The notes: generated by a model from the sequence alone, not told the origin. Shown: positions 27,048 through 29,465, numbered from the stretch's first letter. The stretch: 64,000 nucleotides of DNA from Escherichia coli (GCF_003018255.1 NZ_CP027440.1); one strand, 5' to 3'. Numbers and translations: made by a program.

Positions 27048-27142
27048 GGAAGATCGTCGTCTCCGGTGAGGCGGCTGGACTTCAAATCCAGTTGGGGCCG
27101 CCAGCGGTCCCGGGCAGGTTCGACTCCTGTGATCTTCCGCCA
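27048..27142 (+). tRNA. selC: tRNA-Sec (selenocysteine)
   Basis: 95 nt GGAAGATCGTCGTCTCCGGTGAGGCGGCTGGACTTCAAATCCAG…TCGACTCCTGTGATCTTCCGCCA with UCA anticodon; TATAAT at 27011-27016. Confidence 0.97.
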
Positions 27143-27194
27143 AAATGCCTCTTCTGAACTCTCCCGACGTCAACAACACTCCTTCGGAGGCGAC

Positions 27195-28232
27195 ATGTCA
27201 GACAAAGACTTAACCCAGCCCCCAGCAGGCGAGTTTATTATGTTTGCCAGCGGTGACGGAAGAGTGCGTGTTGAATGTCGCTTTGAGTCAGACACAATCT
27301 GGTTATCCCAGGCGGCAATGGCTGAACTGTACGATAAAGATGTTCGCACTATTAACGAACATTTAATCAATATATTTTCCGAAGGTGAACTTGTTCAAAA
27401 CTCAACCATCCGGAAATTCCGGATAGTTCGCCAGGAAGGAAAACGTCAGGTTTCCAGAGAGATAGACCATTACAACCTCGAAGCCATTCTCGCTGTCGGC
27501 TATCGCGTTCGCTCGCCTCGAGGCACGCAATTCCGCCAGTGGGCCACCCAGACGCTTCAGGAATACCTGATCAAAGGTTTTGTGATGGACGATGAGCGGC
27601 TGAAGAATCCGCCTGTCGGTTCATCGGTTGTGCCCGACTATTTTGATGAGATGCTTGAACGCATCCGCGATATTCGCGCCAGCGAGCGTCGGGTATATTT
27701 GCGGGTGCGGGAGATCTTTGCTTTAGCTGCCGACTATCAGCCATCACTAAAAGAAACCACGCAATTTTTTCAAACCATCCAGAATAAACTGCATTTTGCC
27801 TGTACCGGGCATACCGCTGCGGAACTCATCCACAAACGAGCAGATGCCAGCCAGCCGCACATGGGCTTGACCAGTTATAAAGGTGAAGAGGTACGTAAGG
27901 GCGACGTGACGGTGGCAAAAAATTATCTCACCCAGGATGAGGTCAGCGAACTTAATCGCGTGGTTAATATGTGGCTGGACTTTGCCGAGGATCAGGCCCG
28001 TCGTCGTCAGCAAGTCTTTTTGCGCGACTGGCAGGATAAGCTGGATCAGTTCCTGCAATTTAACGACCGAGAGGTTCTACAGGGCGCTGGTAAAATCAGC
28101 AAGAAAATGGCCGATGAAAAAGCGCAGGCGGAGTATGTTCAGTTTGCCGAACAACAACGGCGCTTAAAAGAAGCCGAAGGCGAGAAGGATATCGCTGGTT
28201 TGCTACAGTGGAATAAAGAGTCGAAAAAGTAG
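27195..28232 (+). CDS. RhuM-family protein (selC-islet cargo)
   Basis: 345 aa from ATG 27195 with GGAGG RBS; N-terminus …EFIMFASGDGRVRVECRFESDTIWLSQAAMAELY… is typical of RhuM family; track ORF starts at a GTG inside selC. Confidence 0.75.
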   Translation: MSDKDLTQPPAGEFIMFASGDGRVRVECRFESDTIWLSQAAMAELYDKDVRTINEHLINIFSEGELVQNSTIRKFRIVRQEGKRQVSREIDHYNLEAILAVGYRVRSPRGTQFRQWATQTLQEYLIKGFVMDDERLKNPPVGSSVVPDYFDEMLERIRDIRASERRVYLRVREIFALAADYQPSLKETTQFFQTIQNKLHFACTGHTAAELIHKRADASQPHMGLTSYKGEEVRKGDVTVAKNYLTQDEVSELNRVVNMWLDFAEDQARRRQQVFLRDWQDKLDQFLQFNDREVLQGAGKISKKMADEKAQAEYVQFAEQQRRLKEAEGEKDIAGLLQWNKESKK

Positions 28233-28338
28233 CCCGGAATCCCCCCAAACGCCATACGCAAAACCATTTGGGGGTACTTATGGGGTTACTCATTTATCAA
28301 ATTCAAAATATAAACATTAAATCAATAACTTAACCATC

Positions 28339-28375
28339 AAATGCGACTCCTGTGATCGCCAAAATGCCTCTTCAG
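28339..28375 (+). repeat. Imperfect direct repeat of the selC 3' end plus flank (att-like scar)
   Basis: gcgactcctgtgatcgccaaaatgcctcttcagtga matches 27121-27158 apart from a 3-bp gap and about 2 mismatches. Confidence 0.7.
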
Positions 28376-28439: not shown

Positions 28440-28661
28440 GTGATTCGTTTTTCTTGCCGAGTGTACGAAAACGTCTTCCTTGCCACCGACTATCAACCGT
28501 CACTCAAAAAAACCTCTCTTTTTTTCAAGCTATCAAGAATAAGTTGCATTTTATCTGCACCGGACACCAGCCATCCATATATGGCTTTTACCTGCTACAA
28601 AGATGAAGAAGTGCATAAATGTGATGTTAAAACAATCAAAGAAAAATTACATGCGCAATAA
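28440..28661 (+). pseudogene. Internal fragment of a second rhuM-like gene
   Basis: …FLATDYQPSLKKTSLFF…YMAFTCYKDEEVHKCDVKTIKEKL aligns to residues about 170-250 of the intact copy at roughly 70% nucleotide identity; no start or N-terminal domain. Confidence 0.65.
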
Positions 28662-28801
28662 TTTCACTATAACATTATAATCCATGGTGAAAATAACACT
28701 GCACAAGGATTGTCATCATCAAACTCATCGGAACTATTTTTTCTGTCGTCATTGGTGTAATACTGATTGTAAGTATCCTTTCAGGAGATTATTTTTGCCG
28801 T

Positions 28802-29299
28802 GTGGGGCATGGAACTTGTAAAGCAGCCAAAAGCGCTAGGCATTTAATTGAAAGTAAAGAGAAAAACAGAAGTAGTCGCGTCAAAGTCTTTAGCACGCAT
28901 ATTAATTTGAGTCATCCAGCGGCATCCTGGCTAGCAACTCAAACTTGCGCTAACAATATATTCAATCTACTTCAAAACAATAATGCCATTTATTTATTCG
29001 AAAACGATAATAAAATTGAACTGCGAATGGGGTATGATTCTTTTTTTTCTATTGAAACGATTGATAAAATTAACAAAGAAAACATCAAAGAAATAAAACT
29101 AAAAAATGAGACAACATATGTTTCTCTTCCTAATCCAACCATTTTAATAACCACGACATCAACACCTGAACGACAGTTTTCTATTTCTGTTCTGGATGAT
29201 GATAACAAAGAAAATCTACCTACCGATACCGCACCTTGTTTTACAATTGGTATTCCTGATGAATATACTAAAGCCATAGAGTTATTGAACATTAAATAA
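28802..29299 (+). CDS. Hypothetical protein in AT-rich DNA, no recognisable family
   Basis: 165-codon ORF from GTG in very low-GC sequence; no clear RBS; first in-frame ATG at 29027. Confidence 0.3.
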   Translation: MGHGTCKAAKSARHLIESKEKNRSSRVKVFSTHINLSHPAASWLATQTCANNIFNLLQNNNAIYLFENDNKIELRMGYDSFFSIETIDKINKENIKEIKLKNETTYVSLPNPTILITTTSTPERQFSISVLDDDNKENLPTDTAPCFTIGIPDEYTKAIELLNIK

Positions 29300-29465
29300 T
29301 TAAATTTCATATTGAGTTTTTTTAAATACCATATGAATAATTGTTATATGTCATTATTTCCTCCATTCACTAAAACTGATTGATTACTCTACTCCCTCAC
29401 CGTCATCGGTAGTGGTATCCTTAACGTATATTGATGAAAAGACAAAACAGTATGCAGAGGGAAAA

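Follow-up and report, generated by a model that had tools for sequence, protein, structure and literature searches.

The window analysed here (the whole stretch of DNA, 64,000 nt of Escherichia coli, GCF_003018255.1 NZ_CP027440.1) carries the E. coli selC locus in the order yicI-yicJ-selC ... yicL-nlpA-yicS-nepI, and behind selC it holds a short segment with a single gene, rhuM, whose origin and present state are the question that this locus raises. A first-pass annotation, made from the sequence alone, had taken the segment to be an islet left by a larger island that had integrated at selC. The explanation that we favour, and that we consider likely, is that 27143-28343 is the stump of an eroded CP4-type selC island, left by one deletion and probably locked in place, in which rhuM is expressed by read-through and has been kept as useful. 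The features on which the argument is built are listed here by position in the window.

27048-27142, + strand: selC (tRNA-Sec, anticodon TCA), intact (ARAGORN; Rfam RF01852, 83.8 bits)
27121-27154, + strand: attL copy of the repeat, made of the last 22 nt of selC plus 12 nt, AAATGCCTCTTC (repeat alignment)
27143-27185, + strand: left-arm remnant of 43 nt, from the integrase-proximal side, AAATGCCTCTTCTGAACTCTCCCGACGTCAACAACACTCCTTC (homology to selC-to-int leaders)
27185/27186, no strand: deletion junction; on its left the island-arm homology stops, and on its right the native rhuM-upstream homology starts at cGGAGGCGAC
27186-27194, + strand: Shine-Dalgarno sequence of rhuM (GGAGG) and spacer, kept
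27195-28232, + strand: rhuM, intact, 345 aa (Pfam PF13310; PADLOC PDC-S05)
28233-28343, + strand: right arm of the island, 111 nt, kept after rhuM in at least 8 genera
28267-28287, + strand: arm repeat TTTGGGGGTACTTATGGGGTT, 76 nt before the core
28344-28373, + strand: DR2, the attR, i.e. the displaced 3' end of selC minus TTCC, plus 12 nt of the old flank
28446-28649, + strand: older layer, a frameshifted rhuM pseudogene fragment covering RhuM aa 166-245 (~80% nt identity to 27730-27808)

The tRNA-Sec gene and the 345-aa RhuM gene just 3' of it (27195-28232) were correctly recognised in the first-pass annotation, as indicated by ARAGORN, Rfam, the ORF itself and its match to Pfam PF13310. The repeat of the selC 3' end that it described downstream of rhuM is also real, but its limits are 28344-28373 instead of the 28339-28375 that had been given, and the selC flank included in it amounts to 12 nt (27143-27154) and not to 20. 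The alignment that had been proposed as a check, of 27121-27154 with 28344-28373, rendered 30 identical positions out of 34 with one 4-nt gap, distributed in two exact blocks of 14 and 16 nt, CGACTCCTGTGATC and (C)GCCAAAATGCCTCTTC, between which only the selC copy has TTCC. A search of the 64-kb window at 0 mismatches rendered two occurrences of each block and no more, and a third copy of the selC end was not found between 28400 and yicL. The repeat stops exactly at the divergence of TGAACTCTCC, which is of island type, from AGTGATCCCC, the old host flank, as recombination at attachment sites predicts. Moreover, DR2 is the attR of the 68-kb selC island of CFT073 and of PAI I of strain 536, including the 4-nt gap, and this identity supports the att-site duplication by integration at selC that had been proposed. 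The downstream flank of DR2 is the same in CFT073, 536 and the window, and other large islands end alike. The repeat flanking selC islands has been described as the 16-bp TTCGACTCCTGTGATC (PMC6174562).

Both ends of the islet resemble island arms. On the left, the selC-to-int leaders of CFT073, of a second locus (L006), of a LEE-type strain (L004) and of E. albertii (L018) are homologous to 27143-27185, with ~74-90% identity of the 43-nt remnant to other arms. Beyond +43 these leaders run on as TAATCCCTTGTATATCAG... towards int, and the window switches at 27185/27186 to GGAGGCGAC-ATG of rhuM. Homology of the window to the native region upstream of rhuM begins only 10 nt before the ATG, and the window has neither the promoter-like upstream motif TCTGGCATACTA nor DUF4942, the backbone or int. 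Since the native homology starts only at -10, a single deletion (27185/27186), running from +43 of the left arm to -10 of rhuM, took away the integrase, the backbone, DUF4942 and the promoter of rhuM itself. On the right, a second repeat of selC islands, TTTGGGGGTACTTTAGGGGGT / TTTGGGGGTTCTTATGGGGGT, has been described (PMC6174562), which lies close to either end of the island and on the right precedes the core by 76 nt, and the arm repeat of the window has the motif and the spacing seen in GIselC17584/1 and EPI-I (TTTGGGGG...ATGGGG type). The stretch 28267-28287 is probably an arm-type site at which a recombinase binds.

The gene rhuM begins 52 nt behind selC and is the sole ORF of 27143-28343 (1201 nt), where an ORF search detected no integrase, in agreement with the integrase-less islet of ~1.2 kb that had been put forward. 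The remark that setC follows selC in K-12 holds for K-12-type genomes, and so does its absence here, since tblastn detected no setC-like sequence in the whole window. The G+C content of the rhuM region (0.47-0.54) is like that of its surroundings and the islet as a whole, at ~50%, is not atypical, low values (0.29-0.39) being found only in the older layer at 28500-29400. An intact tRNA gene on the 5' side, a bounding repeat of the tRNA 3' end, homologous arms and variable presence among strains were found, but a tyrosine integrase by the tRNA gene and an atypical base composition were not. The islet is a degenerate derivative of a selC island of the kind integrated at tRNA genes by P4-type integrases, and not a functional member of that class.

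A comparison of the selC-yicL interval across genomes, which had also been suggested in the first-pass annotation, together with a comparison of 80 rhuM loci from species-representative genomes, rendered CP4-like parents of this islet. Full parents with the order selC-int-CP4-like backbone-DUF4942-rhuM-arm-attR were found in Salmonella, E. albertii, Serratia, Yersinia and Hafnia. The derivation of the islet from a larger island is supported by the presence of this parent in other genomes and by the fact that both ends of the islet are island arms. The complete parents are three contigs, one of Salmonella enterica and the others from metagenomes (L094-L096), in which a backbone encoding YfjT, DUF905, DUF932, antirestriction, RadC, CbeA/CbtA, DUF5983 and DUF4942 proteins is followed by a rhuM 94% identical to that of the window, the arm and the selC core; the order at the E. 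albertii locus is selC-truncated int-DUF4942-rhuM. Among the 80 loci, a module made up of rhuM, an arm of ~111-123 nt (…AAAAYCATTTGGGGG…ATCAAATR) and CGACTCCTGTGATC recurs across genera, having been found in Escherichia E69 (L011), Yersinia ruckeri, Pseudescherichia, Hafnia, an Erwinia MAG and Serratia, and it is conserved in the Salmonella contig as well. In ~30 loci the promoter-like motif lies ~55 nt upstream of the rhuM ATG, and in several of these a DUF4942 gene lies just upstream of the motif. The attR-proximal terminal gene of the parent island is thus rhuM, which is not a natural neighbour of selC.

The E. coli RefSeq set rendered no parent that has both an integrase and these arms, and the full parents come from other species and from the divergent lineage L011. 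This lineage is labelled E. coli E69, and its yicL region is only 86% identical to that of E. coli. It carries three copies of the selC end in a row (L011 204-2063): the middle layer consists of DUF4942 tail-promoter-rhuM-arm-DR, and the next layer starts another, older rhuM, in which the upstream homology is lost at almost the same -10 position as in the window. Some islands keep the end of rhuM, its last 43 nt, beside the same right arm, behind a retron and other defence-type genes (L007/L009-type islands). In two of them (L007 4798-7932 and L009 2798-5932) the attR-proximal genes encode an AAA ATPase, a retron-type HNH endonuclease and a DUF2441 protein, which suggests that the island end serves as a hotspot for defence cargo that can be exchanged. 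SPI-3-like genes come after the selC core in the Salmonella contig; the sequence that follows attR there (L095 9150-9215), AACTCTCCCGACCTCAACAAAA, again resembles an island left arm, and therefore SPI-3 seems to begin with an older left-arm remnant. In Klebsiella aerogenes (L097/L098 7105-9038) the yicJ-selC locus has a rhuM 94% identical to that of the window, which comes after genes for DUF6680 and SymE-type toxin proteins, and has no integrase and no right arm.

The history that we propose is as follows. A CP4-type island with a P4-family tyrosine integrase entered the 3' end of selC, so that selC was restored with the copy of the tRNA end that the island brought (attL) and the original selC end, together with its flank, was displaced downstream, becoming DR2. 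The parental order was selC-int-backbone (DUF932, antirestriction, RadC, CbeA/CbtA, DUF5983, DUF4942)-rhuM-111-nt right arm-attR, from which the single deletion described above left the present arrangement. The comparisons demonstrate these structural steps, namely the integration, the parental order and the deletion, whereas the locking of the islet, the read-through of rhuM and its usefulness are inferred.

The whole islet arrangement was found, with 98-100% identity, in 843 of 5426 complete E. coli genomes, including ATCC 11775 and ST131 strains (rhuM itself was found in 845), and the spacing between selC and rhuM is identical in the four islet genomes inspected; the label given by PGAP to the identical gene is 'virulence RhuM family protein'. 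On the other hand, ~3300 genomes, K-12 and BL21 among them, have only an internal rhuM fragment of ~160 nt between selC and setC, 97% identical to 27554-27622 and fused to a decayed island left arm (L002 3244-3483), which is the vestige of an earlier rhuM islet. In other genomes selC is occupied by LEE, by P4-like satellites or by integrase islands, and one of the islands with a 43-nt rhuM tail stands in front of a K-12-type vestige, showing that new islands displace old layers downstream. Neither an "empty" B2-type site, with selC joined to 28374..., nor a tandem of large island, DR and islet was found in any of the 5426 genomes, and the islet and the large islands are thus alternative fillings of the same selC/DR2 site.

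Beyond the islet the window continues with the rhuM fragment, a 165-aa ORF and yicL. The fragment (28446-28649) is located directly beyond DR2 and represents an older integration layer that had been missed in the first-pass annotation. The ORF (28802-29299; PGAP hypothetical WP_000509808.1) occupies a stretch with 29-39% G+C at the place where K-12 has setC, is kept in all the B2-type flanks seen, and rendered no match in Pfam, NCBIfam, PHROGs or PADLOC. On the other side of selC, the yicH-yicI interval (15807-22750) carries a cluster of genes for a sugar PTS, an aldolase, a ROK kinase, an isomerase and a BglG-type antiterminator, which is shared with CFT073 (L010) and is not present in L005/L006-type genomes; we take it to be the 'frz' operon of ExPEC.

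The RhuM-domain homology on which the first-pass annotation depended is clearly present: residues 70-323 of the protein match PF13310 Virulence_RhuM (E 5.7e-118, model 1-250 of 252), and identity to annotated RhuM proteins is 66-94%. The protein also matches the PADLOC PDC-S05 model PDLC04852 (E 2.8e-173, profile 1-339 of 346); searches in NCBIfam and PHROGs rendered no match, and nothing significant was found among PDB sequences with either the single protein or a 41-sequence profile. The family is large, with 29,152 clusters at 50% identity and 51 records in the phage collection, mostly of temperate phages, and its longer members have added Bro-N or Cro/CI-type HTH domains. Expression in E. 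coli B of a cold-seep PDC-S05 gene with a RhuM domain, a single distant homolog described in a preprint, has been reported to lower the EOP of T7 and T5 by ~1000-fold and that of T4 by ~10-fold (bioRxiv 10.1101/2024.09.26.614923). RhuM was predicted by Anantharaman et al. to be a toxin domain of R-M-linked defence loci, and is found embedded in type I R-M operons (PMC3710099); in 12 of our 80 loci rhuM overlaps an hsdR-like gene. The earlier remark on the poorly defined function of RhuM now holds only in part, the family being a candidate defence family of PADLOC with one protective homolog.

The AlphaFold model of RhuM (pLDDT 86.5) is made up of three parts and includes a helical domain with the invariant residues R161, E164, N197, K242 and N243, for which there is no recognisable solved relative, and a long C-terminal helix. 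RhuM would have been retained as a useful single-gene anti-phage protein, in which the N-terminal domain would bind DNA and the helical domain would be the effector, and single-gene anti-phage defence is the most likely candidate for its role. A Fic/Doc fold, implied by the name 'Fic family' in some annotations, was rejected upon finding no Fic/Doc match in Pfam and none among the PDB fold matches; the relation between RhuM and Doc has been described as one of fusion and not of homology (PMC3710099).

Integrase-less rhuM stumps similar to that of the window have been detected in other genera, and the joints are diverse. In Hafnia the integrase is fused at about codon 20 to the final third of DUF4942; in Erwinia the second half of DUF4942 is fused to the left arm; in Huaxiibacter the left arm is fused to the last codons of DUF4942; in Pseudescherichia the promoter is kept within a 249-nt leader; and in Yersinia ruckeri rhuM is preceded by an IS element and by what is left of DUF4942. 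Such stumps arose through different deletions. The flanks fetched for the 26 loci that have tRNA-Sec before rhuM contain no P4-type integrase in 23 cases. It is possible, although we hold this only tentatively, that a widespread family of selC islands has rhuM as its selected payload, that attL-rhuM-attR stumps of these islands have repeatedly been produced by different deletions in Escherichia, Hafnia, Erwinia, Huaxiibacter, Pseudescherichia and Yersinia, and that in E. coli of B2 type the gene has been rewired to the tRNA-Sec transcript while still serving in anti-phage defence as a single gene, or else as a toxin-like module with an addictive effect.

No sigma-70-like promoter or terminator was found on the + strand of the selC-rhuM interval, folding indicates that the leader is unstructured (z = +0.85), and the GGAGG of rhuM has been kept 43 nt behind tRNA-Sec. 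A hairpin created by the junction and masking the ribosome-binding site was considered and rejected, as folding gave no stable structure. Given the kept GGAGG, an interval with neither promoter nor terminator and an unstructured leader, read-through from the selC promoter appears to be the likeliest source of rhuM expression, and the gene would now be transcribed in this way. As it has lost its own promoter, rhuM could also be silent. That it is a relic, whose intactness reflects no more than a recent deletion or hitch-hiking, would agree with the removal of the native promoter region, with the finding of no promoter-like site upstream and with the decay of rhuM to a fragment at this locus in K-12-type genomes. 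We regard this as unlikely, however, because rhuM is intact in the 843 genomes while the locus differs by up to ~2%, the ribosome-binding site has been kept and no terminator or stable structure is found behind selC. Besides, three islet alleles, each set against the window, differ by 19 synonymous and 5 non-synonymous changes, which argues for continued constraint on rhuM.

As an eroded stump, the islet would be unable to move alone and is probably locked, since it has no int, the left-arm sites are gone and the attR core lacks 4 nt. It could be thought, instead, that the islet is non-autonomous yet mobile, in the manner of a CIME, and that a related integrase acting in trans excises or transfers it: both att cores are present, with their exact blocks of 14 and 16 nt, the right arm and its arm repeat are intact, and at selC, as at other tRNA sites of E. 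coli, related integrases are frequent. This is quite improbable. The cut of the left arm to 43 nt has removed the left copy of the arm repeat (at ~+134 in full islands), the junction is identical in all the islet genomes examined, and the empty site that excision should leave is the one found in none of the 5426 genomes. TTCC is missing from the attR core, so that, as we infer, excision by a crossover in the first block would leave selC 4 nt short. Blum et al. reportedly found, in 1994, a truncated selC after excision of PAI I in strain 536.

It is very improbable that rhuM is an ancestral chromosomal neighbour of selC and DR2 the scar of another, departed island. Part of the survey is consistent with such an origin: 26 of the 80 species-representative loci have tRNA-Sec upstream of rhuM and in the same orientation, 16 of them within 1 kb. 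In Proteus, Morganella, Providencia and Photorhabdus, rhuM comes after selC with neither the arm or repeat nor the promoter motif, and in these genera it may be a long-standing neighbour with a different history. The K-12-type vestige, too, ends up behind attR as ordinary flanking sequence upon integration of a new island. At this locus, however, the arm homologies contradict an ancestral neighbour, because rhuM lies between attL and attR with the left arm of the island before it and the right arm after it; furthermore, several genera have full islands ending in DUF4942-rhuM-arm-attR, and the native promoter of rhuM is gone from the window. As to chance similarity between the two copies of the repeat, for which nothing but their short length can be adduced, its probability is negligible, since the two exact blocks adjoin each other in conserved order, many genera have this repeat equally far behind rhuM, and the sequence of DR2 is conserved at the ends of known selC islands, of which it is the right boundary in many further genomes.

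As a degenerate islet at a tRNA site, the feature is of a known kind, and it leaves island biology unchanged. What is modestly new is that rhuM is a conserved terminal gene of CP4-type selC islands, that integrase-less rhuM stumps recur in several genera, and that the rhuM of E. coli has been left promoter-less behind tRNA-Sec. The locus offers a clean, datable case of the erosion of a tRNA island to one kept gene, and the older rhuM fragment just past attR shows that successive integrations pile up behind selC. As for the gene itself, which has long been a 'virulence' gene by label, its position at the end of these islands, together with the PDC-S05 assignment, argues that it may be defence cargo rather than a virulence factor. 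Since the gene is intact in 843 strains and K-12 has only a vestige of it, E. coli allows a direct test of the defence hypothesis, as well as of the unusual reliance on the promoter of a tRNA gene. What is refined is how this common ExPEC locus is annotated.

With respect to known systems, a CIME is an att-flanked, cis-mobilizable remnant without recombination genes, and the islet resembles it in being bounded by attL and attR and in having no integrase, but differs from it in the truncated left arm, in the damaged attR core and in showing no sign of mobility among the 5426 genomes. In SPI-3 of Salmonella rhuM is associated with selC as in the window, the gene order at selC being sugR-rhuM-...; the cargo of SPI-3 (an autotransporter, a regulator and mgtCB) is absent downstream of selC and rhuM in the window. 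The selC-rhuM vestige-setC arrangement of K-12 has the same position, but unlike the window it has ~160 nt of rhuM, no right arm, no DR2, setC next to it and a different leader. At the protein level, DdrC of Deinococcus radiodurans, a winged-helix and helical-bundle protein that binds DNA breaks, rendered TM-scores of only 0.28-0.38 with 9-13% identity and has no sequence relationship to RhuM; the resemblance is a lead and not a sign of membership. PADLOC PDC-S05 is, like RhuM, a single-gene system, with a full-length HMM match and with relatives near type I R-M genes; its anti-phage activity is that of the cold-seep homolog only, the RhuM of the window being a candidate. The selC islands of E. 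coli with a P4-type integrase (PAI I 536, CFT073, Tia-PAI, AGI-3/EPI-I, GIselC17584/1 and SHI-2) use the same insertion site as the islet and have the same TTCGACTCCTGTGATC repeat and TTTGGGGG...GGGG arm repeat (PMC6174562); they are, however, of 17-77 kb, with an integrase, with virulence or metabolic cargo and with rhuM lost, whereas the islet has 1.2 kb and rhuM only. Finally, the CP4-like DUF4942-rhuM islands (L094-L096, E. albertii L018, Serratia L024 and Y. ruckeri L025) keep the backbone and, behind DUF4942, the rhuM promoter that the window has lost, and have in common with it a rhuM of 87-94% identity, the same right arm and the same attR core, placed equally far from rhuM.
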